From Thiohalobacter sp. (GTDB lineage Bacteria; Pseudomonadota; Gammaproteobacteria; Thiohalobacterales; Thiohalobacteraceae): a DNA stretch of 42,202 nucleotides. The position numbers and the translations under genes are program-made. Under the pieces are notes generated by a model. It did no database searches, was not told the origin of the DNA, and saw only the letters and a list, made by a program, of their open reading frames with translations. Where the stretch lies: assembly GCA_026993645.1 (NCBI GenBank), contig JALWSQ010000229.1, positions 1-42,202 on the forward strand, read 5' to 3'. Shown piece by piece: positions 2,401 through 41,127 of the stretch. Position 1 is the stretch's first letter; each line of letters starts with the position of its first letter.

Positions 2401-3320
2401 GCGTCCTCCAGCCGGCGCCGTGCCCAGTGGCCCGCCAGCACGGCGCCCGAGAGATTGTGCCAGATGCTGAACAGGGCGCCCGGCAGGCTGGCCAGGGCCG
2501 AAAAATGCTGGGCGGCCAGCACCACGGCCAGGCCGGAATTCTGCATCCCTACCTCGATGGCCAGGGTCCGGGCCTCGCGCCGGCTGCGCCGCGCCAGCCG
2601 GGCCAGGCCATAGCCGGCCCCCAGTCCCAGCAGGTTGTGCGCCATCACCGCCACCAGCAGCAGCGGGGCCACCGCCGGAAAGCGGTCGTGGTTGAGCGCC
2701 GTGATGATGGCGATGATGACCACGATGGCCAGCACGGAGATCAGGGGGAACAGGTGCTTGAGGGGATGCAGGCGATCGTGCCAGAGCCGGTTCAGGGTGA
2801 CCCCGGCGGCCACCGGCAGCAACACCACCTTGACGATGCTCCAGAGCATGCCCAGAACCGGCACCGGCACCCGGTGGCCGACGTAGAACCAGGTCAGCAG
2901 GGGCGTCATGAACACGGCCAGCAGCGTGGACAGGGTGGTCAGGGTGATGGACAGGGCCACGTCCCCTCGCGCCAGATAACAGACGACATTGGAGGCGGTG
3001 CCGCCGGGACAGCTGCCCACCAGCACCAGGCCGGCCAGCAGGGCCGGTGGCAGCCCCAGCATCCGGGCCACCAGCCAGCCCGCCAGCGGCATGATCAGGT
3101 ACTGCAGGCCGACACCCAGGGCGACGGCGCCGGGCCGGCGCAACACCTCGGTGAAATTGGCCGGGGTGAGGGTCATGCCCATGCCCAGCATCACCAGGCC
3201 CAGCAGGGGCACGATGGTCGGCCGCAGGCCGACCAGGGGTTCCGGCCAGATCCAGGCCAGCAGCGCCCCCAGCAGGGCCCACAAGGGGAACAATGCCGTG
3301 ATCCGAACCATTGCGTTCAT
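2397..3320 (-). CDS. Bile acid:Na+ symporter (BASS/SBF) family transporter
   Basis: 307-aa polytopic membrane protein with SBF-like motifs (GLVLVGSCPGGTASNV, EVGMQNSGLA). ATGA overlaps at both ends. Confidence 0.9.
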   Translation of the reverse strand: MNAMVRITALFPLWALLGALLAWIWPEPLVGLRPTIVPLLGLVMLGMGMTLTPANFTEVLRRPGAVALGVGLQYLIMPLAGWLVARMLGLPPALLAGLVLVGSCPGGTASNVVCYLARGDVALSITLTTLSTLLAVFMTPLLTWFYVGHRVPVPVLGMLWSIVKVVLLPVAAGVTLNRLWHDRLHPLKHLFPLISVLAIVVIIAIITALNHDRFPAVAPLLLVAVMAHNLLGLGAGYGLARLARRSRREARTLAIEVGMQNSGLAVVLAAQHFSALASLPGALFSIWHNLSGAVLAGHWARRRLEDA

Positions 3321-4189
3321 TCAGTGAGCCCCTGGAATCCCCACTGGCCGCACTTGCGGCCCGCCAGCCGGCAGGCCGACTCTAGCGCCTCGTCCAGGGG
3401 CCGTCCAGCCAGCCGCCCATGGACGAGGGCGGCATTGAAGACATCGCCGGCCCCCAGGGTATCCACCAGCACCGGCGGCGGACTGGCCGGCGCGAACAGG
3501 GTCCCGCCACCAGCCGGCCAGGCCCAGGCGCCCTGGTCGCCCCAGGCAAGCACCAGGTCGGCGGCCGGCGCCCGCTTCCGGGCCCAGGCCGCCAGCTGCT
3601 CCGGCCGGTCGAAGCCGCGGCATCGGGCGAAGGCGCGGGAGAACAGCAACAGGTCCGCCAGCGGCAGCAGCCGCTCGATACCGGGGCGGTCCTTCTCCAC
3701 CTCCAGCGACAGGCCGGGCGGCGCGGCCTGACGGCGCACCCATTGCAGCATGCCGTGGGTCTCGTCCGGCTGGCGGCCTTCGAAATGGATCCAGTCGTAG
3801 GCAGTCGGCGACTCGCGCTGCAGGTCGGCCAGTCCGAGCTCGGGACAGTCGCGGTAGTGGACGATGGTGCGGGATCCGCTTGCCCGGCCAAGCCAGATGG
3901 AGGACAGGGGAGCACGGGCCCCGGCCACCCGGCGGCAGGCGGGGGACAGGCCGATGCCGGCCTCGCGCAACCGGTCCTCGATCCAGACGCCATCGGCATC
4001 CGCTGGCAGGACGCCGGCCCAGTGACACCGGTGCCCGAGCAGGGCCAGCACCTCCAGCAGGTTGGCGGCATTGCCGCCCCGTGCCCGGCGCAGGTCCTGG
4101 GCCCGCTGCTCGCTGTCCTCGACCGGATAACGTGGGAGTGAAAAGATCAGGTCGATGGTCGCCACACCGACCCCCAAGACCCTGGCCAT
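3317..4189 (-). CDS. PfkB-family carbohydrate kinase (ketohexokinase-like)
   Basis: N-terminal VGVATIDL and GGNAAN motifs plus C-terminal DTLGAGDVFNAAL, the PfkB signature (DT.GAGD). 290 aa. Confidence 0.85.
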   Translation of the reverse strand: MARVLGVGVATIDLIFSLPRYPVEDSEQRAQDLRRARGGNAANLLEVLALLGHRCHWAGVLPADADGVWIEDRLREAGIGLSPACRRVAGARAPLSSIWLGRASGSRTIVHYRDCPELGLADLQRESPTAYDWIHFEGRQPDETHGMLQWVRRQAAPPGLSLEVEKDRPGIERLLPLADLLLFSRAFARCRGFDRPEQLAAWARKRAPAADLVLAWGDQGAWAWPAGGGTLFAPASPPPVLVDTLGAGDVFNAALVHGRLAGRPLDEALESACRLAGRKCGQWGFQGLTE

Positions 4190-4266
4190 GACCCGCCGCC
4201 TCGCTGGATGGGAGGCGGTATCTTATCAGGGCAGGGACCCGGTGCGGACCGACGGCCGGCGGGGGA

Positions 4267-7200
4267 CTAGTTGGCGGGCGGGGTCGCCCTGGCCGGACCG
4301 GCACCGGGGGCGCCAGCCACGGACCCGGCGGCCAGGGGCAATGCCGGTAACTGCCAGCCGAAGCGGGGTGCCGCCCAGTAGGCGGCCGCCACCGCCGCCG
4401 CCCCCAGCAGGAGGCCACCCAGCATGGCCCCCAGCAGGCCACCGGCCCGTCCGGGCCGACGCGGCTCGACCCCGTCCCCGGGCGCGACCGGCACGGCCGG
4501 ACTCCGATCGGCGCGCAGGCTGTCCAGTTCCTGCTGCAACTGCGCCAGGTTCTCCTCGTCCCCGGCCGGAGCGGGCGGCTCCGCGGTGACCGGCGGGGTC
4601 GCCGGCGCCTCCTCCCGGGCCGTGGCCCGGAGCCGGGCCAGCTCCTCCCGCGCCTCCTCCGCCTGCAACCGGGCCTCGTTCAGCAGCAGTTCCAACCGGG
4701 CCACCCGTTCGTCGTGGGCTGCCGCCGGCACCGGGGACCTGACCGCCTGTTCCGACCGCAGGCGCGCGATCTCCGCCTGCAGCGCCTGCACATCGGCGGT
4801 GGTGACCGTCCGCAGCTGTTCCAGCTCGGCCTCGTACACGGCCCGGTCCGCCTCGGCCTCCTCTCGCACTCGGGCCAGGGCGGCCTGCAGGGTATCGCGC
4901 TCCTGCTCCACGGCCGCCACGCGGGCACGCAATGCCTCGGTCTCGGCGCCCCCGTCCTCGGCACTGGCCGTCGCGGCCGCGACCTCGGCCTGCAGCCGGG
5001 CCAGCAGCTCGGCCTTCTCCTGCTCGAACCGGGCCTCGGCCGCGGCCTGGGCGCTGGCCATGTCCTGCACCCGCTGTGCCTGTTCCGCCAACGCCGCCTG
5101 CAACTGTTGCCGTTCCGCCTCCCATGCCTGGCGTGCCTCCTCCAGGGCGGCGGCCGCCTGGTCCCGTGCCTCCGTCGACACGCCCAGTGATTGCTCCAGC
5201 GCTTCGATGCGCTGGCGGCTTTCCTCCAGCAACGCCTCGGCGGCGGCCCGGTCGTCATGCAGGGCCTCGGCGCTGGATTCGGCCCGTTCCCTGGCCGCTG
5301 CCAGTTCGGACTGCAGCTGTGTGTTTTCCTCACGGGCCTCTGCCAATGCCTGTTCCAGTCGCTCCAGGCGTCCCGCGAGTTCGTCGTTGTCCTGGCGGAT
5401 CCGCGCGGTTTCCTCCTGCGCCGTGGCCAGTGCCCGTTCCGCCTCGGTCCGGGCCTGTCGGGCCTCGGCCAGCTGCCGGTCCTGGTCGTCGCCCTGCTGC
5501 CGCAGGGCATCGCGCTCGGATTCCAGCTGTTCCACCTTCTGCTGCAAGCCACCCAGGCTGTCCCGCAGCTCACGGGCCTGCTGCTTCATCTCGTCCAGGC
5601 GCCGCTCCAACCGCTCCGCCGTCTCCCGCGCCTCGGTGGCCGCCCGGCCCTCGCTGGCCGCGGATTCGACCGCCCTGTCCCGTTCCTGGCGCAACCGGGC
5701 CAGCTCGGTGGCCGATTCCTCGGCCGCTGTCTCCAGCGCGTCGACCCGCTGTTCCCACTGTCGGCGCGCGGCCTCCTGTTCGGCGGCAGCCTGTTCCCGT
5801 TCCGCCTGCCACTGGCTGGCGGTGGCCTCCATCTCGGCCTGCAGCGTTTCCAACCGTGCCTCCAGGGCCTGCCGCGCCTCGGTGGCAACAGCCAACGCCT
5901 CCTCCAGGCGCTTCCCTTCGTCGCGCTGGGAATCCAGTTCGGCCCGCAGGTGGGCGGTCTGTTCGTCCAGGTCCAGGTCGCGTTCCGCCAGGTCCCGCTG
6001 CAGCGTGGCAAGCTGTTGCTCCAGGGCCTCGATACGTGCCTGCCCCTCGTGCGCCTCGGCGGCCAGGCGCTCCCGCGCCGCCTCGCTTTCCGCCAGTTGC
6101 GACCGCACCGCCTCCAGCGCCTCCAGGTGCTGACCGTCCCGTGCCTCTGCACCGGCCAGTGCCTGCCGCAATTCTTCGATGCTGGCCTCGTCGTCCGCCA
6201 GGCGCGCCCGGGCCGCCTCGGCCTGGTCACGGAAACCGGCGGCCGCCTCCTCGGCGGCCTCCAGCCGTTCCCGCAGGGCCTCGCGCTCGGCTTCGAGGGC
6301 CTGGCGTTGCCGGGCCGATTCCGCTTCGGCCGCCTCCAGCCGCTGGGTCAGCCGGTCGCGTTCCTCCTGCCAGCCACGCTCGGCGGCCGCGAGCGCCGCT
6401 CCGGCTTCTTCCCGAGCCTCGGCCAGCTGGTGTTCCCGGTCCCTGAGCGCCGCGTTCAGGCGTTCCTGCTCGGCGAGGACGGTATCACGTTCCGACTGGA
6501 GGGACTTCACCTGCGCCTCCAGCGCCTCCACCCGGGCATGCGCCGCCTCCTGGGCACCTGCGTGCGTGCTGCCCAGCGCCTTCAATTCCTCCTGCAACCG
6601 GGCATTGGTCTCCTGCTTCTCGAGCAACCGCTGTTCCAGCGCCTCCATGGCATCGCGCGCCGTCTCCATGTCCTGGAACACGGCCTCGGAACGGGCCCGC
6701 GCCTCGGCTTCGGCCTCCCGCGCGGCCTGTACTTCCGCCTCCAGGGCCTGGATCCGCTCCAGGTGTTCCGCCACCTGGGCCTCCAGTTGCGACGTCTCCT
6801 GAGCCGGCATGGTCACCACGGCGGCGGTCGCAGGCGTCGCCGTGGCAGCCGGTGGCTCGGGGACGGTGCCCGGCTGACTGCCCTCGAGGACCTCAGGCGG
6901 AACGGCGGCGAGACCCTCCCGCAGCAGGCAGACGTCGAAACCACCCTCGCTGAGCACGAAGGCCGCGGTGGCACTCCGGCGACCGGTATCGCAACAGACG
7001 ACGTAGGGCCGGTCGGGATCCAACCGCGCCATCTCGTTACGCAGGGCGGACAGGGGCAGGTTCAGGGCGCCGGGCAGGTGGCTGTTCTCGAACTCCCCCG
7101 GCAGGCGGACGTCCAGGCACTGGCCGCCCTGCTCCAGGATGTCCTGCATCCCGGGATAGTCGACCTCCCGCAGCAGGGGCTGCTGCAACAGTTCGGCAAA

Positions 7201-7950
7201 GTCCTTCTTGGCCAGCCGCATCAACACTCCATCGGTGGCCATGGTGACGGTGGCATTGCGCTTGGCATCGGAGACCAGGGCATCCTCACCGAAGGCATGG
7301 CCCTGCCCCAGCTCCGCCAGCAGTACCTCCTTGGCCTGGGGTGCGGGCCGGCGCGAGACCAGGGCCCGTCCCGACTTGATGATGTAGAAATAATCGCCCT
7401 CGTCACCCTGGCGAATCACCACCTCACCGGCACTGACGGGGACCGACTCCATGGTCATCAGCAGCTTCTGGATATTGGCCGGTGGCAGCCGCCGCACGGC
7501 ATCGGACTGGAGCAGCCGTGTCATCCAGTCCTCGTCCTCCTCCTCATTGATCTCCGCCACCTCGTAGCCGGCGGACTGGTCCCAGGTGAGCATGATGTCG
7601 AGCAGGCCCGAGTCCACCCGTGCGATGAGGCTGCGGGTGCGGGCCACGGCGGTGAGGTCCCGTGGCTGACGGTGGGCGAGGGGATGCCAGGCCAGATCGC
7701 TGCCAGCCTTGACCCGGGTGGTGGCACCGTCGGCCGCCACCAGATCGATCTCGCCCTCGAGCAGGTAGACGGTCTGGTTGTCACGCTGGCCGATGCGGAA
7801 GATGCGGCCGCCGGCCTTGATTTCCTCGATCCGCGCCTGCCGCGCCACGTCGCTGAAATGCCCCGGCGACAGGGCATTGAGGGGAACGAACCTCTGCAGG
7901 ATCTTGAGATCGATGATCTTCTTTGCCGCACCCATACGCCCGCCAACCAT
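4267..7950 (-). CDS. Membrane-anchored protein: two cyclic-nucleotide-binding domains, rhodanese domain, about 750-aa coiled coil, C-terminal TM helix
   Basis: The second cNMP domain has a canonical cassette (FGEDALVSDAKRNATVT). Rhodanese region LDVRLPGEFENSHLPGALNLP...VVCCDTGRRS. Then a long A/E/R/Q/L heptad-like stretch and the TM segment GGLLGAMLGGLLLGAAAVAAAYWAA (nt 4369-4443). Start is uncertain: ATG 7950 (GGGAAACAGG upstream), 7935 or 8004. Confidence 0.85.
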   Translation of the reverse strand: MVGGRMGAAKKIIDLKILQRFVPLNALSPGHFSDVARQARIEEIKAGGRIFRIGQRDNQTVYLLEGEIDLVAADGATTRVKAGSDLAWHPLAHRQPRDLTAVARTRSLIARVDSGLLDIMLTWDQSAGYEVAEINEEEDEDWMTRLLQSDAVRRLPPANIQKLLMTMESVPVSAGEVVIRQGDEGDYFYIIKSGRALVSRRPAPQAKEVLLAELGQGHAFGEDALVSDAKRNATVTMATDGVLMRLAKKDFAELLQQPLLREVDYPGMQDILEQGGQCLDVRLPGEFENSHLPGALNLPLSALRNEMARLDPDRPYVVCCDTGRRSATAAFVLSEGGFDVCLLREGLAAVPPEVLEGSQPGTVPEPPAATATPATAAVVTMPAQETSQLEAQVAEHLERIQALEAEVQAAREAEAEARARSEAVFQDMETARDAMEALEQRLLEKQETNARLQEELKALGSTHAGAQEAAHARVEALEAQVKSLQSERDTVLAEQERLNAALRDREHQLAEAREEAGAALAAAERGWQEERDRLTQRLEAAEAESARQRQALEAEREALRERLEAAEEAAAGFRDQAEAARARLADDEASIEELRQALAGAEARDGQHLEALEAVRSQLAESEAARERLAAEAHEGQARIEALEQQLATLQRDLAERDLDLDEQTAHLRAELDSQRDEGKRLEEALAVATEARQALEARLETLQAEMEATASQWQAEREQAAAEQEAARRQWEQRVDALETAAEESATELARLRQERDRAVESAASEGRAATEARETAERLERRLDEMKQQARELRDSLGGLQQKVEQLESERDALRQQGDDQDRQLAEARQARTEAERALATAQEETARIRQDNDELAGRLERLEQALAEAREENTQLQSELAAARERAESSAEALHDDRAAAEALLEESRQRIEALEQSLGVSTEARDQAAAALEEARQAWEAERQQLQAALAEQAQRVQDMASAQAAAEARFEQEKAELLARLQAEVAAATASAEDGGAETEALRARVAAVEQERDTLQAALARVREEAEADRAVYEAELEQLRTVTTADVQALQAEIARLRSEQAVRSPVPAAAHDERVARLELLLNEARLQAEEAREELARLRATAREEAPATPPVTAEPPAPAGDEENLAQLQQELDSLRADRSPAVPVAPGDGVEPRRPGRAGGLLGAMLGGLLLGAAAVAAAYWAAPRFGWQLPALPLAAGSVAGAPGAGPARATPPAN

Positions 7951-8138
7951 CCTGTTTCCCTGCCACCTGCCCGGACGGCACCGTCCCATACCCCTTGCCG
8001 GCACCGGGTTTGCCGACGGTGGCCTGCATTGCCCGCCCCCAGGCCAGCCGTTAACATCCGGTCTATCGGCGGCACGACAACGATCCTTGAACCCGTGGCC
8101 GACGTCCGCCCCCCGGGCCTAACTCACTGGAAAAACGA

Positions 8139-8591
8139 ATGAAGCAGGTACGATCCTTCGCGACACCGGAGGCTGCGGAAGCCGCCTTCTACCAGGCCAT
8201 GGCCGAGGCCGACTACGCCGGCATGCAGGGGGTCTGGGCGGCCATGGATGAAATCGTCTGCGTGCATCCCGGAGGACCGAGATTGACCGGTGCCTCGGTG
8301 CTCGAGAGCTGGCGCGCCATCTTCTCCAGAGGCCGGGGGATTCCGGCCACGCCACAGGCGGTCCATCGGCTGCAGACGGATGAACTCGCGGTGCACTCCC
8401 TGCTGGAACTGGTCCCCAAGGGTGACGGCAGCGGGTACTACCCGCCGGTCATCGTCACCAATGTCTATCGCCGTACCGAGAGCGGCTGGCGCATGGTGTT
8501 GCACCATGCCCACATGAACCCACGCCCGGAGAACGAAGGCGGCGAAGTGCATGAGGACACGGCGGAGAAGCCGGGACCGCGCCTGCACTGA
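8139..8591 (+). CDS. NTF2-like / SnoaL-like (DUF4440-type) protein
   Basis: 150 aa. The pattern ATPEAAEAAFYQA...VCVHPGGPRL.G...SWR.IF...TNVYRRTESGWRMVLHHA is typical of YybH/DUF4440 NTF2-fold proteins. Confidence 0.75.
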   Translation: MKQVRSFATPEAAEAAFYQAMAEADYAGMQGVWAAMDEIVCVHPGGPRLTGASVLESWRAIFSRGRGIPATPQAVHRLQTDELAVHSLLELVPKGDGSGYYPPVIVTNVYRRTESGWRMVLHHAHMNPRPENEGGEVHEDTAEKPGPRLH

Positions 8592-8745
8592 ATTCCGAAT
8601 ACGGGACGATTTTCCCTTCCAGCGCAGTGCCGGCAACGGAATGGTCACAGGAAACGACGCTATTTCCAGCACAAAAGGCTTCCCATACGAAAATATTGTG
8701 CTATCTTTAGCGCCGTCGATCTCACCTGAACAGAGGAGTCTGTTG

Positions 8746-9114
8746 ATGGCTGCCAGAAAGAAAGCCGCAAAGAAATCCGCCAAGAAGAAAGCTGCCGTGA
8801 GTGCAGCGAAGAAGCCCGCCACCAAGGCCGATACCCTCAACTTCATCGCCAACGAAACCGAGCTGTCGAAGAAGGACGTCGCTGCCGTGTTCGACGCCCT
8901 GTCGAAGTACATTCGGCGCCAGCTCAACAAGCGTACCGGTCCGGGTTTCTACACGGTACCGGGGCTGATGAAGATCAAGGTGGTACGGAAACCGGCAACC
9001 AAGGAACGCAAGGGCATCAATCCGTTCACCGGGGAAGAGACCATCTTCAAGGCCAAGCCGGCCCGCAACGTGGTCAAGATCACCCCGCTCAAGGGTCTGA
9101 AGGAAATGGTCTGA
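8746..9114 (+). CDS. HU-family DNA-binding protein with Lys/Ala-rich N-terminal tail
   Basis: GAGGAG lies 7 nt upstream of ATG 8746. The N-terminus MAARKKAAKKSAKKKAAVSAAKKPATKA is followed by an HU fold (LSKKDVAAVFDAL...GINPFTGEE..FKAKPARNVVKITPLK). Confidence 0.85.
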   Translation: MAARKKAAKKSAKKKAAVSAAKKPATKADTLNFIANETELSKKDVAAVFDALSKYIRRQLNKRTGPGFYTVPGLMKIKVVRKPATKERKGINPFTGEETIFKAKPARNVVKITPLKGLKEMV

Positions 9115-9746: not shown

Positions 9747-10418
9747 CTAGCGCCTCGTCACCCGGAAGGCATGGCCCTCGAAGGAGAAGACCGCGCCGGT
9801 GGGCGTGATGTGCAGCAGGCGCAATCCGGACGGCAGGCGATCCCCCTCGCGGTACTTGCGCAGGGCGACCAGGATGAAACGCCGTTCCGGCCGTGGGGCA
9901 TAGACATGGACGTCCATGGCGGGGGGGGCGATGCGAGCGCGCAGAGAGGCCGGCAATTCCCTGTACAGCGGCACGGCGACCGGAGCAGGGGCATTCGCGG
10001 AGGGTGACGGCAGCGCTGGCCGCCGCCGGGCCGGCACGGGGGCCGGAACCGCTGCCGGCCGGGCCCGGCTGGCCACCCGCTTCCCGGACGAGGATGGCAC
10101 CGCCGCATCCGCCGGCGCGGGGCGCCTCACGGCAGGCGGCCGGTGCGAAGCCGGGCGCACCAGCGGTGGCGGATGCCCGGGGACAGCGGGCACGGCCGGC
10201 ACCGCCGCGGTCACCGGGACATGCCGGGCCTCCGGCGCCCGGGGGCGCAGGAACAGCACCGCCAACAGGACCAGGTTGGCGACCACCGCCGCCCCGAACC
10301 ACCAGCGCCAGCGCGTCCCCCGGGAGACAGGTTCCGGTGGCGCAGTGGTGGGATCCGGCACCTGGCCCTGGCGCCGTTCCCGCTCGGATTTCTTCAATGC
10401 CTCGAGAATGTAGGACAT
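9747..10418 (-). CDS. gspB: Type II secretion protein B-like (GspB/ExeB)
   Basis: MSYILEALKKSERER N-terminus, one TM (WWFGAAVVANLVLLAVLFL), a Pro/Ala-rich linker and a C-terminal GspB-type domain (LPASLRARIAPPAMDVHVY...). Its start overlaps the exeA stop by 1 nt. Confidence 0.75.
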   Translation of the reverse strand: MSYILEALKKSERERRQGQVPDPTTAPPEPVSRGTRWRWWFGAAVVANLVLLAVLFLRPRAPEARHVPVTAAVPAVPAVPGHPPPLVRPASHRPPAVRRPAPADAAVPSSSGKRVASRARPAAVPAPVPARRRPALPSPSANAPAPVAVPLYRELPASLRARIAPPAMDVHVYAPRPERRFILVALRKYREGDRLPSGLRLLHITPTGAVFSFEGHAFRVTRR

Positions 10419-12229
10419 CAGGCCCCCTGGTGTCGCCGGGCGGCACGGTCGAGCAGTCTCGGACCCTTCTCCCCGACCACCCGCAGGTTGAGACGAATCA
10501 GGGTCTCCGGTCCCGCGACCCCGTCCACGCGCAATCCCTGGGCGGCCTGGAACCGGCGCACCGCCGCCTCCAGCGGCGGGTCGAAGCGATCCCCCGTCGC
10601 GGCCAGCGGCAGCCCGCTGGCTGCCAGGTGCTGGCGTAACCAGCCCACGGCCGGTCCCTGGTCACCCAGGCGCAGCCGGCTGACCTGGACCGGCGGCCGC
10701 CACAGCAGGATGAACTCACCGTCCCAGGCCGCCGTCAGCTGGTCCAGCGGCAGGCTGACCGCCTTGCCCGCCACCTGCATCCGGACCCGGCCGTCATCCA
10801 GGCCGCGCAGCAGGCAGGGGATGCGCTGGCCATCGGCCCGCTCCAGCCAGACGATGGCCGGCCGGTCCAGGCGCCGCAACTGGGCCAGGGTGCCGCGATA
10901 ATGGTAACAACGCAGGCCCGCGGCGGCCGCCTGGCGGCAGGGGTCCAGCGGATCGTTGAGCAACAGGGGTACCTGCCACAGGCGGAACAGGGCCTGCCAG
11001 GCCAGGAGGCTGCCGCCCTCGGCATCGGTACCCGCCAGCAACCGGGCCAAGCGCGGGGTCGGCGGCGGCGCCACCGGCGCGGCAGGCGCGGCCCGCGCGG
11101 ACAAGGACGCGGCACCAGCGGCAGGCACCGGAACCGTCGGGGAAACCGCTCGGGGTGGCCGCGCACCGCCCGTCTCCTGTGCCGGCGAAACGGCGGTCGC
11201 GGTCTTCCCCGTCGGCGCAGGGGGCACCGCCAGGGTCCGGGGTTCCTGTCCCCGGCCAGCGGCCACCTCAGGGGCCCGGGTCCGGGACGTTTGTGCCGCC
11301 GGCGGCGGGTGCCAGGCCGACTGACGCAGGAGCAGCAGGCTCAGGGCCAGGATCGCCAGGGCCATGCCCAGTCCCCACACCGGCCGCGCACGGCGGCTGC
11401 CCGCCGTGGTCCCGGCGTGGGGCAACACCTCCGCCGCCGCACGCCGGACGATGGTGGGATTCACCCGCGGGCGGTTGGCCGAATAGGCACCCAGCAGGGC
11501 ACGATCACAGAGGATGTTGACCAGGCGCGGGATGCCACCGGTGAGGCGATAGACCTGATTCAGGGCGGCGCGGGTGAACAGGCCCTGCCGCGGGTCCGCC
11601 CCGGCCACCGCCAGCCGGTGCTCGACATAGGCCCGGGTCTCCGCCGCCGACAGGGCACCCAGGTGATAGCGGGCCGTGATGCGCTGTGCCAGCTGGCGCA
11701 GATCCCGCCGGCCGAGCAGGTCGCGCAGCTCGGGCTGCCCCACCAGGATGATCTGCAGCAGCTTGTGTTCCGCCGTCTCCAGGTTGGTCAGCAGGCGTAC
11801 CTGTTCCAGCACGTCGGCCCCGAGGTTCTGGGCCTCGTCGATGATGACCACGGTGCGCCGGCCGCGGGCATGGTTCTCCAGCAGGTGGCGGTTGAGGCAA
11901 TCGGTCAGGGTCTTGATGCTGGCGACGTCGCGGGGATAGTCGACACCCAGCTCGTCGCACAGGGTGGCCACCAGTTCCAGGCTGCTGAGGCGGGGATTGA
12001 GGATGAGGGCGACATCCACGTCCTCCGGCAGCTGTTCCAGCAGGGCCCGGCACACCGTGGTCTTGCCGGTCCCTACCTCACCCGTCAGCTGGACGAAGCC
12101 ACCACTGACCCGTACCCCGTACAACAGGTGTGCCAGCGCCTCCCGGTGCCGCTCGCTCAGGAAGAGATAGCGCGGGTCCGGGGTGATGGCGAAGGGGCGG
12201 CCATGCAGATGAAAGTATTCCTGGTACAA
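10418..12229 (-). CDS. exeA: ExeA/GspA-type AAA ATPase with C-terminal peptidoglycan-binding domain
   Basis: MYQEYFHLHGRPFAITPDPRYLF, Walker A GEVGTGKTT, Walker B VVIIDEAQ, one TM segment, and a C-terminal PG_binding_1-like LGDQGPAVGWLRQHL...FQAAQGLRVDGVAGPETL. Confidence 0.9.
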   Translation of the reverse strand: MYQEYFHLHGRPFAITPDPRYLFLSERHREALAHLLYGVRVSGGFVQLTGEVGTGKTTVCRALLEQLPEDVDVALILNPRLSSLELVATLCDELGVDYPRDVASIKTLTDCLNRHLLENHARGRRTVVIIDEAQNLGADVLEQVRLLTNLETAEHKLLQIILVGQPELRDLLGRRDLRQLAQRITARYHLGALSAAETRAYVEHRLAVAGADPRQGLFTRAALNQVYRLTGGIPRLVNILCDRALLGAYSANRPRVNPTIVRRAAAEVLPHAGTTAGSRRARPVWGLGMALAILALSLLLLRQSAWHPPPAAQTSRTRAPEVAAGRGQEPRTLAVPPAPTGKTATAVSPAQETGGARPPRAVSPTVPVPAAGAASLSARAAPAAPVAPPPTPRLARLLAGTDAEGGSLLAWQALFRLWQVPLLLNDPLDPCRQAAAAGLRCYHYRGTLAQLRRLDRPAIVWLERADGQRIPCLLRGLDDGRVRMQVAGKAVSLPLDQLTAAWDGEFILLWRPPVQVSRLRLGDQGPAVGWLRQHLAASGLPLAATGDRFDPPLEAAVRRFQAAQGLRVDGVAGPETLIRLNLRVVGEKGPRLLDRAARRHQGA

Positions 12230-12361
12230 GAATCCACCTCGGCAAGGGACCGGACAGGCAGGCTGCCGCGGCCGGGATCCCCTGCTAGCAGGGCCCCTCG
12301 GCGCCCATTTGTCAAGACTGCACAGTCGATCAGTATCGTCTTATACTCTAATCGAGTAGCT

Positions 12362-18283: not shown

Positions 18284-18617
18284 GACCCATCCCCTGCAGG
18301 GCATCCTGCTCGACGAGGCCTGCGAGTTCAGCCTGCGCGAGCTGGCCACCGCCTGCGACACCAGTGCCGAGATCCTCATCGCCATGGTCGAGGAAGGCCT
18401 GCTGGAACCGCGGGGGGTGGATCCGCGCCGCTGGCGGTTCCCGGCCGAGGCCCTGGTGCGGGCCCGCACCGCCCTGCATCTGCAGCGGGACCTGGGCGTG
18501 AATCTCGCCGGGGCTGCCCTGGCGGTGGACCTGCTGGAGGAGATCCGCCGCCTGCGACGGCGCCTGCAGGTGCTGCAGACCGCCCTGGAGCACCATGTCA
18601 GCGAGCTCAAGTGGTGA
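18270..18617 (+). CDS. cbpM: Chaperone-modulatory protein CbpM (MerR-like)
   Basis: Lies immediately after cbpA and overlaps it by 14 nt (GTG start). FSLRELATACDTSAEILIAMVEEGLLEP...RARTALHLQRDLGVNLAGAALAVDLLEEIRRLR follows the CbpM pattern. Confidence 0.8.
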   Translation: MVQPETHPLQGILLDEACEFSLRELATACDTSAEILIAMVEEGLLEPRGVDPRRWRFPAEALVRARTALHLQRDLGVNLAGAALAVDLLEEIRRLRRRLQVLQTALEHHVSELKW

Positions 18618-21600
18618 GGCGGCGGTAGATATCGGAAACCTTGAGCGGCAGCTTGCGCACCTCGTCCACCAGGGTATAGCCCACCGCCCCGTACATGTGC
18701 GGCAGGTAGTCACGGGCCTCGGTGTCGATGGTGATGCAATAGGGATGGATGCCCTGCTGCTTGATCTCGATCAGGGCCTTGCGGGTGTCCTCGATGCCGT
18801 ATTCGCCGCGGTAGCTGTCGTAGTCGTCGGGCTTGCCGTCGGACAGGGTGATCAGCAAGCGGGTGCGCGCCTCGATCTTCGCCAGCATTCCACCCAGGTG
18901 GCGGATGGCCACTCCCATGCGGGTGTAGTCGCGGGGCTCGATGCCGCTGATGCGGGCCCGCACCGCCTCGTCGTAGGGTTCGTCGAAGCGCTTGACCCGG
19001 TAGACCTCGCAGCGCTTGCGGGTCATGCCGGAGAAACCATAGATGGCATAGCGGTCGCCCAGGGTCTCCAGTGATTCGCTGAGCAGCAGCAGGGCCTCGC
19101 GCTCGGCGTCGTTGATCCAGCCCTTGGTGGAACCGCTCATGTCCACCATGAACATCACCGCGATGTCGCGCTCCACCTTGCGCATGCGGGTGAACAGGCG
19201 GTCGGTCATCTCCATGCCGGCACAGACGTCTGCGTGGGCCTCGACCAGGGCGTCGATGTCGATGTCGTCGCCGTGGGGTTGCTTCTTCAGCAGCCGTTCC
19301 TCGCCGCGCAAGGCCTCGAACACCCGCCGCAGGCTCTTCACCAGACCGCTGTAGCGGGCCAGGGTCCGCTGGGCGAAATCGTCGTGGCGCGGTGTCACCT
19401 CCAGCTCGCGCAGGACCGTCCAGTTCTTGCGGTAGTGCTGGCGCTCGTAGTCCCACTCGTTGTAGTGGAAGGCACCCTCCTCGTGGTAGGTGCCCTGCCA
19501 TACGCTGGTGGCATCCTGGGCCTCGCCCGCCGGCACCCCGGCGTAATAGGCACCGGGCCCGGCCGCCTGCAGGTAGTCCTCGGGGATCTGCCCCAGGTCC
19601 TGGAGTATGGACATCATGGTCCCGCGCACATCGTCGGGCGGGGCCAGGGGCTTGCCGTCCAGGGTGATCTCATAGGCCACGCCGTCCGGGGCCTCGGCAT
19701 CCGCCACCTCGCGCAATCCCAGGCGCTGCGCCATGGACCGGGCCTCGTCGGGGTCGTCCCCGGCCTGGCCATCGCGCGCCGCGGACTCCAGCCGTGCCAG
19801 GTTGTCCTGCCAGCGCAGCAGGGCCACGCGAAACGCCTGGCGGTCCCGTTCCAGCCGGGCCGTGCGTGCCCGGGCCACCGCGTCCGGCTGGATGGTCCCC
19901 ATGTAGCAGAGGGGCGGGGGCAATGGCGCTGCCGCCAGCCGCTCCAGCCAGCGCAGGCTGTCACCGACCCCGGCCCCCGGCCGGGCCAGCGCCCGGGCCG
20001 CCGCCTGCCAGGCCTCCGGCAACGCGGCCGGGCCGTCGAGCCGTGCCGCCAGATCGGCCATGCGGCGGGCCTCGCCGGGCAGGGTACGCGCGATGCAGGC
20101 CGCCAGGCGCAGTTGCTCCAGGCGGTGGAAGCGGGCCAGCCGGTCCCGGTCCGCCCCCTCCAGCACCGCCAGGGCCTCCGCCCGCCAGGTGCCGAACCAG
20201 GTCTGGGCCCACTGGTGGACCACCATGGCGCGGTAGAGGGCGAAATTGTCGGCCCGCTCGGAACAGCGGTTGACGACCGGGGGCAGGAACAGGCTGTCGG
20301 TGTCCGTATAGGGTACCTCGGCGGCCTCCACCCGCAGCCGCCGCCCGTTCAGCCCCTGGACGAAGGCCTCCAGCACCGGGGCCGTGTCGGCCAGGGCCAC
20401 CGCCTGGCCCCCGGTGTGCACGAACTCGGCAAAATGGCCGACCTCGCGCAGGGCGGCGATGCCGGCATGGAGCCCCCGGGTGTCGAAGGCATCCATGGCA
20501 TGGATGAGCCAGGCCTCGACCCCGTCCAGGTCCATGCGCTCCAGCGCCTCGGCGGCGAAGGCGGCGAACTGGTAGGCCATCTCGGAATTGGTGTGGGCGG
20601 TGACCTCGACCCAGTGCAGGATGAAATCCTGCTGCTCGCGGGCGAACTCCGCCAGCCGGCGAGCCGGACCCGCCGCCGTGCGGCGCGAGGACAGCACTGC
20701 GTCCAGGGGCACGTCCAGGCGGGCCTCGATCTGTTCCGCCGTCAGGGGCACCTGGCGCGCGTCACCCAGCAGGCGGTCGGCGGACTCGTCGTACCAGCGC
20801 GCGGCCACCCCCGCGGCCAGGCGCCGGCCGTCGGCCGTCTCCAGCCCCACCTGCAACGCCTCCACCTTGCGTCCGGGCAGGGCATCCCGCAGCAGCTGCG
20901 CCAGGCTGGATTCACTCCAGGAACCGGGGCGGATGGCCAGCCAGATGCCCCGGCACTGGTCGCTGACCAGCTGTGGCAGCCGCTTGGCCAGCTTGGCCAG
21001 GTCCACGGCGATGTCCCAGGAACGGTGATGCGGACCGCGACCGATGAAGGGCGGGGTGACCACCACCAGGTCGAACCGCTGCCGGGCGCGGATGGCCGCC
21101 TCCACGTAGGCCAGCCCGTCCTCCTGGACGAACTCGACGTTGTCCCGGCCGACGTTGGCGGCGGCCCGGTCAAGCACGTCCGCGTCCGCGTCCACGTGTA
21201 CCACCGTCGCCCCGGCGTTCAGGGCGCAGGCGGTCACCAGGCCCTCGCCGGCGAACAGGTGCAGGACCCGGATCTCGTCCATGTGATAACAGCCCGCCAG
21301 CCGTTCCTGCGCCCAGCGACCGCAGAGCAGCTGCTCCGGCTTGAGCCCGATGCGCCCGTCCGCATCCAGCCGGCAGTGGAAGGGAATCCCGTCCAGCGCG
21401 AACACCCAGTGGCCGGGCAGGCCCTGGCGCCGCGGTGCCCAGTGCCCGCCCTCCACGCCTTCCTGGACGTAGGTCCAGTCGGCATCCCAGTGCCGCAGCC
21501 GCCGTGCCCCCTCGGCCCAGCGCCAGGGTCGTTCCACCACGAAGGAACCGAACCGCTCCAGGCAGCGACCGCGGCCGAAGTCGAGCAGCTCGTACTCGTC

Positions 21601-21636
21601 GGCGGGGGTCTGCAGGAAGAGGGGCTGGCTGTCCAT
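18607..21636 (-). CDS. CbbO/NorD-type VWA protein with in-frame N-terminal SAM-methyltransferase-like module (1009 aa)
   Basis: aa 1-285 resemble a small class I MTase (YELLDFGRGRCLERFG, VLHLFAGEGLVTACALNAGATVVHVDA, DLVVVTPPFIGRG). aa 300 onward resemble CbbO (SSRRTA..., QQDFILHWVEV, NSEMAYQF). The C-terminal VWA has MIDAS VDMSGST (nt 18610-19170). There is no stop between the modules. Confidence 0.8.
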   Translation of the reverse strand: MDSQPLFLQTPADEYELLDFGRGRCLERFGSFVVERPWRWAEGARRLRHWDADWTYVQEGVEGGHWAPRRQGLPGHWVFALDGIPFHCRLDADGRIGLKPEQLLCGRWAQERLAGCYHMDEIRVLHLFAGEGLVTACALNAGATVVHVDADADVLDRAAANVGRDNVEFVQEDGLAYVEAAIRARQRFDLVVVTPPFIGRGPHHRSWDIAVDLAKLAKRLPQLVSDQCRGIWLAIRPGSWSESSLAQLLRDALPGRKVEALQVGLETADGRRLAAGVAARWYDESADRLLGDARQVPLTAEQIEARLDVPLDAVLSSRRTAAGPARRLAEFAREQQDFILHWVEVTAHTNSEMAYQFAAFAAEALERMDLDGVEAWLIHAMDAFDTRGLHAGIAALREVGHFAEFVHTGGQAVALADTAPVLEAFVQGLNGRRLRVEAAEVPYTDTDSLFLPPVVNRCSERADNFALYRAMVVHQWAQTWFGTWRAEALAVLEGADRDRLARFHRLEQLRLAACIARTLPGEARRMADLAARLDGPAALPEAWQAAARALARPGAGVGDSLRWLERLAAAPLPPPLCYMGTIQPDAVARARTARLERDRQAFRVALLRWQDNLARLESAARDGQAGDDPDEARSMAQRLGLREVADAEAPDGVAYEITLDGKPLAPPDDVRGTMMSILQDLGQIPEDYLQAAGPGAYYAGVPAGEAQDATSVWQGTYHEEGAFHYNEWDYERQHYRKNWTVLRELEVTPRHDDFAQRTLARYSGLVKSLRRVFEALRGEERLLKKQPHGDDIDIDALVEAHADVCAGMEMTDRLFTRMRKVERDIAVMFMVDMSGSTKGWINDAEREALLLLSESLETLGDRYAIYGFSGMTRKRCEVYRVKRFDEPYDEAVRARISGIEPRDYTRMGVAIRHLGGMLAKIEARTRLLITLSDGKPDDYDSYRGEYGIEDTRKALIEIKQQGIHPYCITIDTEARDYLPHMYGAVGYTLVDEVRKLPLKVSDIYRRLTT

Positions 21637-21668
21637 GGGGATTTCGCGCCGCGTGGCGCCGCGGGGGC

Positions 21669-22481
21669 TCAGAACAGGGAGGCGCTCAGCTCGTTCACCG
21701 CCACCAGCATCTCCGGGTCGTCGGTGAGGGCCTGGGCGATGGCGTTGCGGCAGGCGATCACCGGCTCCACCCCGGAGACCATGAGCTTGGCGGCGTGCAC
21801 CAGCAGGCGGGTGCTGGCCCCCTCGTCCAGGCCGCTGCCCTTGAGGTTGCGCGTCATCTGGGCGAAGCGAACCAGCTGAGCGGCGGTGTCGGCATCCACG
21901 CCGCTCTCGGTGGCGACGATGCGCGCCTCCAGCTCCGGGGCCGGGTAGTCGAAGGCCAGGGCGACGAAACGTTGACGGGTGCTCTGCTTGAGATCCTTGA
22001 GCACGCTCTGGTAACCGGGATTGTAGGAGATGGCCAGGCAGAATTCGGGGGGGGCCTGGAGGATTTCCCCCAGCTTTTCCATGGGCAGCACCCGCCGGTC
22101 GTCGGCCAGGGGATGGATGACCACGGTGGTGTCCTTGCGCGCCTCCACGATCTCGTCGAGGTAGCAGATGGCGCCGCTGCGCACCGCCCGCGCCAGGGGG
22201 CCGTCCACCCACCGGGTCTCGCCGCCGGTGACCAGGAACCGCCCCACCAGGTCCGAGGCGGTCAGGTCGTCGTGGCAGGAGACCGTGATCAGCGGCCGGC
22301 CCAGGCGCCAGGCCATGTGTTCCATGAACCGGGTCTTGCCGCAGCCGGTCGGCCCCTTGAGCAGGCAGGGCAGCCCGTTGCGGAACGCCGCCTCGAACAC
22401 GGCGATCTCGTTGCCCTGCGGCTCGTAGTAGGGCTCCTCGGTGATGAAATACTCTTCCGGCTTGAGTGCGTGCGCCTTCAC
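21669..22481 (-). CDS. CbbQ/NorQ/NirQ-family MoxR-type AAA+ ATPase
   Basis: [46 protein letters not shown] (Walker A), Walker [11 protein letters not shown], and a CbbQ-like C-terminus. I chose GTG 22481 (GGGGA 6 nt upstream), which gives 270 aa, the usual CbbQ length. The longer ORF-track start is rejected. Confidence 0.9.
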
Positions 22482-22560
22482 GGTCTGTCCCCTGTCCCCG
22501 TCCCGCCCAAGGTACCGCCCCCACTGCGCCGGGGCAACATGCCCCAGGGACCCTGGAGGA

Positions 22561-22589
22561 TATATATCCATTCTATTTATACATTCGAA
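22561..22589 (-). promoter_or_regulatory. Candidate sigma70 promoter for cbbQ
   Basis: The minus strand reads TTCGAA (22589-22584), a 17-nt spacer, then TATATA (22566-22561). Both hexamers lie inside perfect palindromes (TCGAAATTTCGA, GGATATATATCC). Confidence 0.35.
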
Positions 22590-22887
22590 ATTTCGATGCC
22601 ATGTACCCCGTTTGGCAGGTAGCGCCCACCGGGCCGAGCAGGTATCTTTTGCAGGCTGCGCGCGGGGCGTCCCCTGCAACGGCTGCCCCATTCGCCCGCC
22701 GGCCCGCCCGTTCACCGGGCCGGGAGACCCGCGAGAATACTTGACGAAATCGGTCAGGTCCAACGACGTCGGTCGCGCGGGCAGGCCTTGCAGCACCGGA
22801 TTGCCCGGTGGGCGCGGTGGCGGCATCCCGCCCGCACCCCCGGAACCAGGGCTTTCAGAGTCAGCATCCTAGACGGAGGACCATCTA

Positions 22888-24174
22888 ATGTCGGAGGTAA
22901 TCGCAACCAACCAGACGATCCTGGTGGTGGGCGGAGGGATCGCCGGGATGACCGCCGCACTCGAGGCAGCGGAGTGCGGCAAGCAGGTCATCCTGGTGGA
23001 GAAGAATCCCTCCGTCGGCGGCCGCGTCGGTCAGCTGTACAAGTACTTTCCCAAGCTGTGCCACCCCAAGTGCGGCCTGGAGATCAACCTGCGCCGCATG
23101 AAGGCCAACCGCAACCTGCGGCTGCTGACCATGACCGAGGTCACCGCGGTCACGGGCGAGGCCGGCAACTACCAGGTCAGCCTCCGCACCCAGCCCCGTT
23201 ACGTCACCGAGAACTGCACCGCCTGCGGCGAATGCGCCCGGGCGGTGGAGGCCGAGTTCGACAACGAGCACAACTTCGGCCTGGGCAAGCGCAAGGGGGC
23301 CTACCTGCCCTACAGCCTGGCCTATCCCATGCGCTACGTGCTGGATCCGCGCATCATCGGCACCGACGATGCCACCCGGGCCAAGGAGGCCTGCAAGTAC
23401 GACGCCATCGACCTGGACATGCAGCCCCAGGAGACCCAGATCACGGTCGGCGCCATCATCTGGGCCACCGGCTGGCGCCCCTACGATGCCGCCCGTATCC
23501 AGCCCTACGGCTACGACCGCTTCGCCAACGTCATCACCAGCGTGGAGTTCGAGCGCATGGCCGACCCCCATGGCCCCACCGGCGGCAAGCTGTTGCGGCC
23601 CTCGGACGGCAAGGAGGCCAAGAACGTGGCCTTCATCCAGTGCGCCGGCTCGCGCGACCGCAACCATCTCAAGCACTGCTCGCGCATCTGCTGCATGGCC
23701 ACGCTCAAGCAGACCACCTATCTGCGGGACAAGTACGGCGACGACTTCAAGGCGTCGGTCTACTACATCGACATCCGCGCCATCGACCGTATCGACGATT
23801 TCTACCAGAAGGTGCGGGCCGATGAGAACGTCAGTTTCATCAAATCCAAGGTGGCCAGCATCACCGAAGACCGGGAGACCGGCAATCCGGTGCTGAACGG
23901 CGTGGATACCGAGGGGTATCACCGCTACAGCAACCCCCACGACCTGGTGGTCCTGGCCATCGGCATGGAGCCCAGCGTACCGGCGGGGGAATTTCCCGTC
24001 GACGTGGTCCTGAACGAGGAGGGCTTCGTCCAGCAGGACGAGGCCAACGGCGCCTTCTTCGCCGCCGGCTGCTCGTCGGACGCGCTGGACGTGAACCGGG
24101 CGGTGCAGAACGCCACCGCCAGCGCGCTGCGTGCCATTCAGGTTGTTAACCGGGTTGCCGGAACGGAGGTCTGA
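22888..24174 (+). CDS. qmoA: QmoA-like HdrA-family flavoprotein
   Basis: GGAGGA RBS. FAD fold ILVVGGGIAGMTAALEAAECG. The HdrA/Qmo-type motif FPKLCHPKCGLEIN is present, and there are no ferredoxin Cys clusters. qmoB follows directly. Confidence 0.85.
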   Translation: MSEVIATNQTILVVGGGIAGMTAALEAAECGKQVILVEKNPSVGGRVGQLYKYFPKLCHPKCGLEINLRRMKANRNLRLLTMTEVTAVTGEAGNYQVSLRTQPRYVTENCTACGECARAVEAEFDNEHNFGLGKRKGAYLPYSLAYPMRYVLDPRIIGTDDATRAKEACKYDAIDLDMQPQETQITVGAIIWATGWRPYDAARIQPYGYDRFANVITSVEFERMADPHGPTGGKLLRPSDGKEAKNVAFIQCAGSRDRNHLKHCSRICCMATLKQTTYLRDKYGDDFKASVYYIDIRAIDRIDDFYQKVRADENVSFIKSKVASITEDRETGNPVLNGVDTEGYHRYSNPHDLVVLAIGMEPSVPAGEFPVDVVLNEEGFVQQDEANGAFFAAGCSSDALDVNRAVQNATASALRAIQVVNRVAGTEV

Positions 24175-24176
24175 CC

Positions 24177-26429: not shown

Positions 26430-26438
26430 GAGCCGGTT

Positions 26439-27065
26439 ATGAGCGACTACAACCAGCAGATGATCGAGCAATTCCGTGGCAACTTCCTCAAGGAGGTGGA
26501 ATCCAACGTCGAGGAAGGCGAGTGGGTCAAGATGTGCATGCAGTGCGGCGTCTGTTCGGGCTCCTGCCCGTTCGGCCCCCACTGGGCACACCCGCCGCAG
26601 GAGATCTTCATGATGATCCGGGAAGGGGAACGCGAGCAGGTGCTCACCTCCGACTCCATGTGGATGTGCACCTCCTGCTACAACTGCATCGTGCGCTGCC
26701 CCCGCGGCCTGCCCATCACCCACATCATGCATGGCCTGGCCACCTACGCCAAGCGCCTGGGCCTGGCACCCAAGGAACAGCCGACCGCCAAGTTCGCCCA
26801 GCTGTTCTGGGACAACCTGACCAAGACCGGCCGGGTCAACGAGCTCAAGCTGGGGCTGGCCCTGTACTTCATGAACGGCTTCAGCGAGGGCATCAAGACC
26901 TCGCTCAAGATGAAGGACATCGGCCTCGGCATGTGGAAGACCAAGCGGCTCAACCCCATGGAGATGGTGGGCGGTCATTCCTGCAAGGACACCAAGGGGC
27001 TGCAGGCCATCCTGGCCAAGGCCCAGGAAATCGAGGACGCCAAGATCGGCCGGTCTGGCGCCTGA
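26439..27065 (+). CDS. hdrC: HdrC-like iron-sulfur subunit
   Basis: Two CxxCxxCxxxCP-type clusters (CMQCGVCSGSCP, CTSCYNCIVRCP). It sits between qmoB and the hdrB-like gene. Confidence 0.85.
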   Translation: MSDYNQQMIEQFRGNFLKEVESNVEEGEWVKMCMQCGVCSGSCPFGPHWAHPPQEIFMMIREGEREQVLTSDSMWMCTSCYNCIVRCPRGLPITHIMHGLATYAKRLGLAPKEQPTAKFAQLFWDNLTKTGRVNELKLGLALYFMNGFSEGIKTSLKMKDIGLGMWKTKRLNPMEMVGGHSCKDTKGLQAILAKAQEIEDAKIGRSGA

Positions 27066-27075
27066 GGAGAATCCC

Positions 27076-29185: not shown

Positions 29186-29292
29186 ACTGGTTCTCCTTGG
29201 GAATGGTCATCTCTCTGGATGCGGCCCGGCGCTGGCCCCGGCCGCTTCCGGTTCGTTGTACGACAATTCGTTACCGCCGGCCGGCGGCGCCC

Positions 29293-41100: not shown

Positions 41101-41127
41101 TCCGGGTCCTCTCCATCGTCCTTTGTT

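Follow-up and report, generated by a model that had tools for sequence, protein, structure and literature searches.

A predicted membrane-anchored coiled-coil protein of Thiohalobacter with a tandem cyclic nucleotide-binding and rhodanese head

We know of few bacterial receptors for cyclic nucleotides besides the transcription factors of the CRP type. One of them, CbpA of Pseudomonas aeruginosa (PA4704; Endoh and Engel 2009, cited in PMC11139211), is reportedly a non-CRP receptor of cyclic AMP (cAMP), in which a degenerate cyclic nucleotide-binding (CNB) domain is followed by a canonical one and whose polar localization depends on cAMP; to our knowledge, no rhodanese domain, coiled coil or membrane anchor is known in CbpA. 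Pycsar effectors combine a domain that binds cyclic nucleoside monophosphates (cNMP) with transmembrane (TM) helices. The design of a small head with a regulatory or binding role, a coiled coil of hundreds of residues and an attachment to the membrane or the envelope is found in PodJ and TipN of Caulobacter, in FrzS and AglZ of Myxococcus, whose heads are sensor-like, and in the tail-anchored golgins of eukaryotes. Here we describe a gene from Thiohalobacter sp. (assembly GCA_026993645.1, contig JALWSQ010000229.1), analysed within a stretch of 42,202 nucleotides (positions 1 to 42,202), which we call the window. The gene encodes a predicted inner-membrane protein, anchored at the C-terminus, with a cytoplasmic N-terminal head and a helical stalk between the two. 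The head consists of a tandem CNB module similar to that of the regulatory subunit of cAMP-dependent protein kinase (PKA), directly followed by an intact-looking rhodanese domain.

A first-pass annotation of the window, made from the letters alone, had proposed a tail-anchored protein of about 1230 residues at positions 4267-8004. The open reading frame (ORF) is present, and its product most likely comprises 1222 residues: all homologues open with M-x-A-A-K-K, which is equivalent to the ATG at position 7935 (MGAAKKIID), most likely the true start codon. By exact-sequence look-up, the identical 1222-residue product was found to be called on three contigs, including one of the Logan assembly of SRR13853571, which is 99.98% identical to positions 3750..9036 of the window (1 of 5287 nucleotides differs). 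An exact look-up of the protein in the protein-cluster collection gave no match. Because the domain matches described below are well above the Pfam cut-offs and the same product is encoded in an independent assembly, the ORF is an intact, real gene, and the interruption on resequencing that the first-pass annotation had allowed for was not found. The GC content of the region is 72-76%, and three long ORFs run antisense inside the gene, as had been pointed out before. The longest of these has a codon-position GC bias of 0.32, nearly that of the true frame (0.35), and its translation yields tblastn matches in 54 related loci, where it looks conserved because the sense gene itself is conserved. 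Domain matches in Pfam are confined to the sense frame. The antisense strand of such genes thus presents an annotation hazard in the form of long, apparently conserved ORFs.

The head was assigned with hidden Markov models of Pfam. The cNMP_binding family (PF00027) matched two stretches of the protein with 96.9 bits (cut-off 27.5), and the Rhodanese family (PF00581) matched with 51.4 bits (cut-off 22.2, E = 1.6e-13). The remaining Pfam matches were weak, coiled-coil noise, and NCBIfam holds no model for the head. The best cNMP_binding stretch corresponds to residues 190-275 of the 1245-residue ORF, that is to residues 167-252 of the 1222-residue protein, and lies in the second CNB domain (CNB-B). 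We aligned the first 356 residues of the window protein with 62 homologues (63 sequences in total). The phosphate-binding cassette of CNB-B is canonical (FGEDALVSDAKRNATV, residues 215-230), with F215, G216, E217, A219, L220, R226, N227 and A228 invariant in the alignment. The cassette of the first domain (CNB-A) is degenerate (AGSDLAWHPLAHRQPRDLTAVA): the Gly-Glu pair is absent, an insertion is present, and only Q90-P91-R92 is conserved in this region of the window protein. In place of a cassette, CNB-A of the family carries the pattern AG[ST]D.A..P.A.QQPR, which is itself highly conserved. In the rhodanese domain, a catalytic-type Cys (Cys315, nucleotides 6991..6993) opens the six-residue active-site loop C315-D-T-G-R-R-S321, of which C315, D316, G318, R320 and S321 are invariant in the 63 sequences. 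The first-pass annotation, which had listed two cNMP-binding domains with a canonical cassette only in the second (FGEDAL....RNATV) and a rhodanese domain with retained Cys (VVCCDTGRRS), was thus correct on the head, and it had called for the domain search reported here.

An AlphaFold2 (AF2) model of the head, built with the 63-sequence alignment, had a mean predicted local distance difference test score (pLDDT) of 79, and each domain was modelled confidently. CNB-A folds in this model into a beta-sandwich and a helix (pLDDT 80-93), and the acidic linker between the two CNB domains is disordered (pLDDT <50 at residues 121-135). In a Foldseek search, the head model was closest to the CNB tandems of PKA RI-alpha, PKG and related regulatory subunits (E ~1e-18 for PKA RI-alpha and PKG), and the best matches of a phmmer search of the PDB were likewise the CNB domains of PKG and PKA.

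The linker that joins the head to the stalk has no secondary structure in the AF2 model (pLDDT <50). Residues 396-1130 consist of 24% Ala, 19% Glu, 12% Arg, 11% Leu and 9% Gln, so that these five amino acids make up 76% of the region, in agreement with the composition noted at first sight. Pro is absent over 690 residues (378-1067). The stalk contains 17 Gly residues, and the longest run free of both Pro and Gly comprises 88 residues; of the earlier statement that the stalk has no Pro or Gly breaks, only the part on Pro can therefore be kept. Hydrophobic residues recur along the stalk at a period of 3.5-3.6 residues, with a mean local power of 0.67 versus 0.14 in shuffled sequences (z 20.8), whereas there was no signal at periods of 3.0, 4.0 and 5.0 in the stalk and no 3.5-residue periodicity in the head (z -0.3). 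The test was a home-made one, based on local windows with locally shuffled controls, and periods of 3.5 and 3.6 are not separable by it. Local windows replaced a global Fourier analysis of the whole stalk, which was uninformative because register shifts destroy the global phase. A crude score of heptad a/d core occupancy that counts Ala as hydrophobic was patchy because Ala makes up 24% of the region. The observed periodicity argues for amphipathic helix packing, and against disorder or a charged single alpha-helix.

In a single-sequence AF2 model (pLDDT 63, predicted TM-score (pTM) 0.28), residues 378-1108 are helical. The model comprises seven helices of 77, 139, 154, 154, 70, 68 and 38 residues; the six breaks between them are 4-6 residues long and lie mostly at Gly-containing sites. 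A Foldseek search with this low-confidence model gave nothing below E 0.3, and the stalk of the window protein contains no nucleotide tandem repeats and no significant internal protein repeats. SMC and Rad50 profiles of NCBIfam matched the coiled-coil region only and far below threshold (TIGR02168, 61 bits versus 567); as the protein also has no ABC ATPase head, membership of the SMC/Rad50 group was rejected. The rise of a coiled coil is ~0.148 nm per residue, and the 690-730 residues of the stalk would thus span 100-108 nm if fully extended. A span of 100 nm is not established, because it depends on an extended, uninterrupted coiled coil and six breaks are predicted. The earlier description of the stalk as helical and coiled-coil-like is in accord with the periodicity and the predicted helices, which at the same time contradict the alternative of low-complexity disorder; the word 'uninterrupted' has to be dropped.

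Toward the membrane, a Pro-rich spacer (residues 1109-1126), a short helix (1127-1143) and another Pro-rich spacer (1144-1163), which ends with EPRRPGR, lead to the putative anchor. The anchor is the sole segment in the 1222 residues for which the Kyte-Doolittle mean over 19 residues reaches 1.6, and in orthologs a Gly/Ala/Leu-rich TM helix with an aromatic end is found at the same relative position. Spacer and single C-terminal TM helix are located where the first-pass annotation had placed them. On inspection of the sequence, three Arg residues within the seven residues before the TM helix and one just after it fit a topology with the N-terminus inside, and the N-terminus itself (MGAAKKIIDLKILQRF) is not hydrophobic-looking by eye. 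Beyond the anchor, the orthologs carry a ~330-380-residue linker plus FGE-sulfatase domain, where the window protein has only a short, predicted extracytoplasmic tail. No match to PF03781 (FGE-sulfatase) was found in the window protein with Pfam, and no remnant of this domain is possible downstream, because the next gene, pfkB, follows the stop codon at a distance of only 77 nucleotides. The coordinates of all features are given in Table 1.

Table 1. Features of the gene, of its antisense strand and of its surroundings in the window (aa, amino acids; CDS, coding sequence; nt, nucleotides)
Feature	Position (nt)	Strand	Basis or remark
Longest ORF, 1245 aa from GTG	4267..8004	-	ORF list
Complete CDS, 1222 aa + stop (most likely start)	4267..7935	-	ATG at 7935; upstream sequence, homologue N-termini, independent gene call
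CNB-A, aa ~10-121	7573..7908	-	Pfam, AF2 fold, Foldseek, alignment
Acidic inter-domain linker, aa 122-136 (EINEEEDEDW region)	7528..7572	-	AF2
CNB-B, aa 137-252	7180..7527	-	Pfam best stretch, alignment, PDB phmmer
Rhodanese domain, aa 256-345	6901..7170	-	Pfam; partial NCBIfam matches
Pro/Ala/Thr-rich flexible linker, head to stalk, aa 346-377	6805..6900	-	Pro positions; AF2
Helical coiled-coil stalk (predicted), aa 378-1108	4612..6804	-	Composition, periodicity, AF2
Membrane-proximal region, aa 1109-1163	4447..4611	-	Sequence; AF2
Single TM helix (predicted) GGLLGAMLGGLLLGAAAVAAAYWAAP, aa 1164-1189	4369..4446	-	Kyte-Doolittle 19-residue mean 2.1
Short predicted extracytoplasmic tail, aa 1190-1222 (33 residues)	4270..4368	-	Ortholog comparison
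Antisense ORF, 983 aa	5191..8142	+	Inside gene
Antisense ORF, 569 aa	4424..6133	+	Inside gene
Antisense ORF, 504 aa	4932..6446	+	Inside gene
PfkB-family sugar kinase gene, directly downstream	3317..4189	-	Pfam PfkB 9.2e-28
HU-fold DNA-binding protein (Pfam Bac_DNA_binding)	8551..9114	+	Lys/Ala-rich, histone-H1-like N-terminal extension AARKKAAKKSAKKKAAVSAAKK
640-aa AAA_22 + GspA C39-like + peptidoglycan-binding protein	10418..12340	-	Pfam; NCBIfam
CbbQ	21669..22868	-	Adjoins heterodisulfide-reductase-like genes
Heterodisulfide-reductase-like genes: FAD oxidoreductases, FlpD/MvhD domain, CCG domain	22873..27975	+	
CheW + CheB	40639..42147	-	

The head is widespread. A word-indexed search with the head as query returned more than 7800 proteins, mostly of ~350 residues (head only) or of 450-620 residues (head and a coiled-coil tail of 100-270 residues), and an exhaustive search of the representatives of 50%-identity clusters returned 1414 at E<=1e-30. 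Many Gammaproteobacteria of marine and sediment habitats have the head, among them Thiohalobacter, Thiogranum, Woeseia, Steroidobacteraceae and Sulfuriflexus. Where the sources give a name, it is 'CRP-like cAMP-binding protein' or 'cyclic nucleotide-binding domain-containing protein', and such names conceal the distinctive architecture. We counted architectures in the 147 closest representatives (P0121-P0267 of 150 listed). The plan of head, long coiled coil, TM helix and FGE-sulfatase-like domain was the most frequent (66 of 147), with one further protein in which the same plan lacks a clear TM helix. Five representatives (P0182, P0190, P0208, P0244 and P0256) are tail-anchored like the window protein, and in nine the TM helix is followed by other or partial sequence. 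Head and coiled coil without TM helix were found in 40 proteins of 400-999 residues and in two of at least 1000 residues, and 24 proteins consist of the head only. In two metagenomic representatives, P0188 (3779 residues) and P0189 (2327 residues), the head matched in 12 and 16 separate stretches, respectively; in both of these giant proteins, numerous cNMP-binding and rhodanese-like repeats are strung together.

The nearest loci in reference genomes (55-59% identity) belong to Thiohalobacter, Thiogranum and gammaproteobacterial metagenome-assembled genomes (MAGs), and their proteins comprise 1296-1805 residues. The C-terminal part of one of them, from Thiohalobacter sp. (L001), matches the Pfam FGE-sulfatase family with 5.9e-54. 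A simple tree of the head and the similarity of the stalk place the window protein beside L002 of Thiohalobacter thiocyanaticus (1350 residues) and L004 of the MAG NAT125 (1296 residues). Both have no FGE domain and end in a hydrophobic stub (GGLVAGLFGGRRRREES) of ~10 hydrophobic residues, which aligns with the start of the TM helix of the window protein; judged from this alignment, they appear to have lost the larger part of the anchor in addition to the FGE domain. On the basis of sequence comparison, we describe the window protein as a variant with a predicted tail anchor in a large, diverse family, which has lost the periplasmic FGE domain.

The distance from the head to the TM helix varies in the orthologs from ~640 to 1090 residues, and the sequence of the stalk is barely conserved among them. 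In one ortholog (L006), a 225-bp tandem repeat of 4.2 copies with 95% identity lies within the coiled-coil part (positions 9769..10717 of that locus). The reading frame of this ortholog stops at 760 residues, ~2.8 kb before pfkB, which is probably due to a frameshift in a long-read MAG and does not represent a short protein. Because its length is variable, its sequence barely conserved and a tandem repeat present in one ortholog, the stalk appears to behave as an evolvable spacer, in comparison with a strongly constrained head. In the 240 residues before the TM helix, 89 long forms share a weak helix-break-helix motif, LR.EL...A.RLR.EAE (40-70% frequency); it was rejected as a defined module, and the window protein fits it poorly.

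Full-text literature searches found no paper on this family or on an architecture of cNMP-binding domain, rhodanese and coiled coil, and searches for FGE-sulfatase with coiled coil and for tail-anchored proteins with cAMP found nothing relevant. The one paper that contains both 'cyclic nucleotide-binding domain' and 'rhodanese domain' concerns unrelated genes and was set aside. The earlier impression that the protein does not belong to a described family is thus in line with the literature, and with 1414 representatives it is not an isolated oddity. The only loose parallel is with Family 2 encapsulins, in whose surroundings domains of both kinds are found (PMC8346489); it involves neither homology nor synteny with the window locus.

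The position of the pfkB gene, directly downstream, is conserved in 11 loci with long forms. The 77-nucleotide gap contains no terminator-like site, and NCBIfam has no specific equivalog or other model for the PfkB kinase. Upstream, the window and the nearest loci have in common the order of genes for an HU-fold protein and TerB, for a GspA-like AAA_22 ATPase, and for a hydrolase and ribonucleotide reductase. Since this gene order is common with the Thiohalobacter and Thiogranum loci, the window gene is, judged by synteny, the positional ortholog of the genes that encode head, coiled coil, TM helix and FGE domain. The HU-fold protein occupies the same position in 11 related loci with 61-79% identity, and the best NCBIfam match of the 640-residue ATPase, an XrtA/PEP-CTERM system-associated ATPase, scores 276.9 bits, below the cut-off of 324.5. 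Short-form loci (e.g. L057, L058 and L059) have a different context downstream, ~0.5-3 kb from the head gene: in ~42 loci, the gene for a head of 350 residues alone and pilZ are convergent, and holB, (tmk), mltG, pabC and fabF come next. These conserved neighbours look like a case of housekeeping synteny and not like an operon with a common function.

Farther away in the window, a 1321-residue ORF (18607..22572, minus strand) has no Pfam match and overlaps cbbQ; the true gene at this place is probably in another frame and is possibly cbbO. From their N-terminal sequences, judged by eye, we take the genes at positions 28121..35336 (minus strand) to encode class II aldolase, pyruvate kinase, phosphoglycerate kinase, GAPDH and transketolase. 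This run of the central-carbon and Calvin-cycle type, like CheW and CheB, fits a motile chemolithoautotrophic gammaproteobacterium.

To account for the architecture, we tentatively favour a model in which the stalk would be a parallel homodimeric coiled coil that serves as a spacer or tether of variable length between the membrane anchor and the head. A parallel, in-register homodimer was preferred because uncompensated changes of length are easily tolerated in that geometry. CNB-B would bind a cyclic nucleotide, most likely cAMP, and binding would move the C-terminal lid helix of CNB-B, which is predicted to run straight into the rhodanese domain. The movement of the helix could gate the access to Cys315 or the binding of a partner, and Cys315 may carry or relay a persulfide. 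Taken together, the protein would be a cNMP-responsive head capable of sulfur relay on a membrane tether or scaffold, and not a transcription factor, a channel or a regulator of a kinase. The architectural part of this composite model is much more certain than the functional part.

Several observations weigh against the model. The cassette of CNB-B reads R-N-A-T, as opposed to R-[AST]-A-T of the well-studied cAMP and cGMP sites, and the assignment of cAMP to the putative site is therefore tentative. The arrangement of the domains in the head is uncertain in the AF2 model (pTM 0.40), so that we can only infer a coupling of CNB-B to the rhodanese domain. None of the conserved neighbouring genes, which encode the PfkB kinase, a SnoaL-like protein and the HU-fold protein, suggests a pathway. 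Finally, the six breaks predicted in the stalk and the equal lengths of neighbouring helices (154/154 and 70/68) also fit bundles that fold back on themselves, and in such antiparallel bundles the head would be much closer to the membrane.

Among the alternatives, the one that we find least difficult to accept, though still doubtful, is that of a polar or cytoskeletal landmark, in which the coiled coil would self-assemble into a membrane scaffold like those of PodJ, TipN or FimV/HubP. The head would recruit or release clients in response to cAMP, and the periplasmic domain of the orthologs would fix the scaffold to the envelope. The plan of the orthologs resembles that of PodJ (cytoplasmic coiled coil, one TM helix, periplasmic domain), but Pfam and NCBIfam gave no sign of homology with PodJ, TipN or FimV. 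The pattern of a degenerate and a canonical CNB domain, as reported for the cAMP-dependent polar protein CbpA, recurs in the window protein and would suit a landmark. The adjacency of the short forms to pilZ also points in this direction; however, the two genes are convergent, pilZ lies within the housekeeping cluster (holB, mltG, fabF), and the arrangement is absent from the window.

We regard as unlikely an arrangement of the stalk in antiparallel helical bundles, with the Gly-containing breaks as turning points, as in spectrin, EzrA or the arms of SMC proteins; it would make the protein a compact, membrane-proximal rod of ~20-40 nm in place of a 100 nm tether. This proposal concerns the geometry only, and it is compatible with either functional reading. 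Beyond the paired helix lengths and the loops of 4-6 residues in the AF2 model, it could draw on the weak matches to SMC/Rad50 arm profiles, which probably reflect composition only. The AF2 model and its Foldseek search are, as described above, of low confidence and without significant hits, and there is no ABC ATPase head or hinge. Moreover, the length of the stalk varies freely among the orthologs, and one of them has undergone a recent tandem duplication that is uncompensated, which is more easily reconciled with the parallel dimer of the favoured model.

A specific form of the tether model, similar to the tail-anchored golgins, appears improbable to us as a whole. In this form, the head, gated by cAMP and carrying a persulfide, would stand on a parallel dimer of stalks as far as ~100 nm from the membrane in the cytoplasm of sulfur-oxidising autotrophs. 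The protein would capture an intracellular structure or position it relative to the membrane, be it the nucleoid, a carboxysome or a granule of sulfur or polyphosphate, and in the orthologs this structure would be coupled to the envelope via the periplasmic FGE-like domain.

We find it very improbable that the protein is an outside-in receptor, in which the periplasmic FGE-like domain would sense a ligand and the signal would run along the coil, the window protein being a decaying remnant without a sensor. The periplasmic domain is kept in 66 of the 147 closest representatives, as this proposal would have it, but 640-1090 poorly conserved residues of variable length are implausible as a signal wire, and there are members of the family in which the head stands by itself or has only a short tail. 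Furthermore, tail-anchored forms without the sensor recur among the representatives (5 of 147), and the window gene is intact with all motifs of the head conserved. Disorder, an annotation artefact of GC-rich sequence or a Pycsar-type anti-phage effector can hardly be credited: the region is GC-rich with long ORFs on both strands, but the periodicity (z ~21), the AF2 helices, domain matches in this frame only and a gene conserved and syntenic in relatives contradict the first two, and PADLOC found only compositional coiled-coil matches to JetC and LmuB with no Pycsar model and no cyclase gene adjacent, so that the Pycsar assignment was rejected.

The head, in which a rhodanese domain follows a pseudo-CNB and a CNB domain, is strongly conserved. 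In one large clade it is linked to the membrane and the periplasm by a stalk that ranks with the longest coiled coils predicted for bacteria. Knowledge of the role of the family would reveal a use of cNMP signalling in sulfur-oxidising chemolithoautotrophs, and it would put to the test the idea that long tethers anchored in the membrane, or a sulfur relay under the control of cNMP, are employed by bacteria.

Compared with known systems, the head differs from CRP/FNR transcription factors, an assignment that was rejected because no helix-turn-helix family was among the Pfam matches. The tandem CNB folds are closest in sequence and structure to PKA and PKG regulatory subunits or domains in the PDB, and the second cassette is canonical as in those proteins. 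Unlike them, the window protein has a degenerate CNB-A and continues after the tandem with a rhodanese, a coiled coil and a TM helix, and no counterpart of their docking/dimerisation domain, inhibitor sequence or kinase partner was detected in it. With CbpA as reported, the window protein shares only the succession of a degenerate and a canonical CNB domain. With PspE and GlpE, the window protein has in common the rhodanese fold and a loop of the C-x-x-G-x-R/Q-S type, and partial NCBIfam matches reach 28-32 bits; the equivalog cut-offs of 102-126 are far above these scores, and the domain of the window protein is fused to cNMP-binding domains and a stalk. With PodJ, TipN, FrzS, AglZ and the golgins, only the design principle is shared: the head domains differ, and no sequence homology was detected.

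The closest plan is that of the long forms such as L001 of Thiohalobacter sp., L003/L005/L008 of Thiogranum and P0121-P0123, whose heads are 55-63% identical to that of the window protein. They have the same CNB-B cassette and rhodanese loop, the Pro-rich linker, a stalk that likewise runs to hundreds of residues and the same type of TM helix, and pfkB lies downstream and HU, TerB and the GspA-like ATPase upstream of their genes. They differ in that the FGE-sulfatase domain follows the TM helix, whereas the window protein ends 33 residues past it. Nothing in the analysis forces a surprising mechanism.

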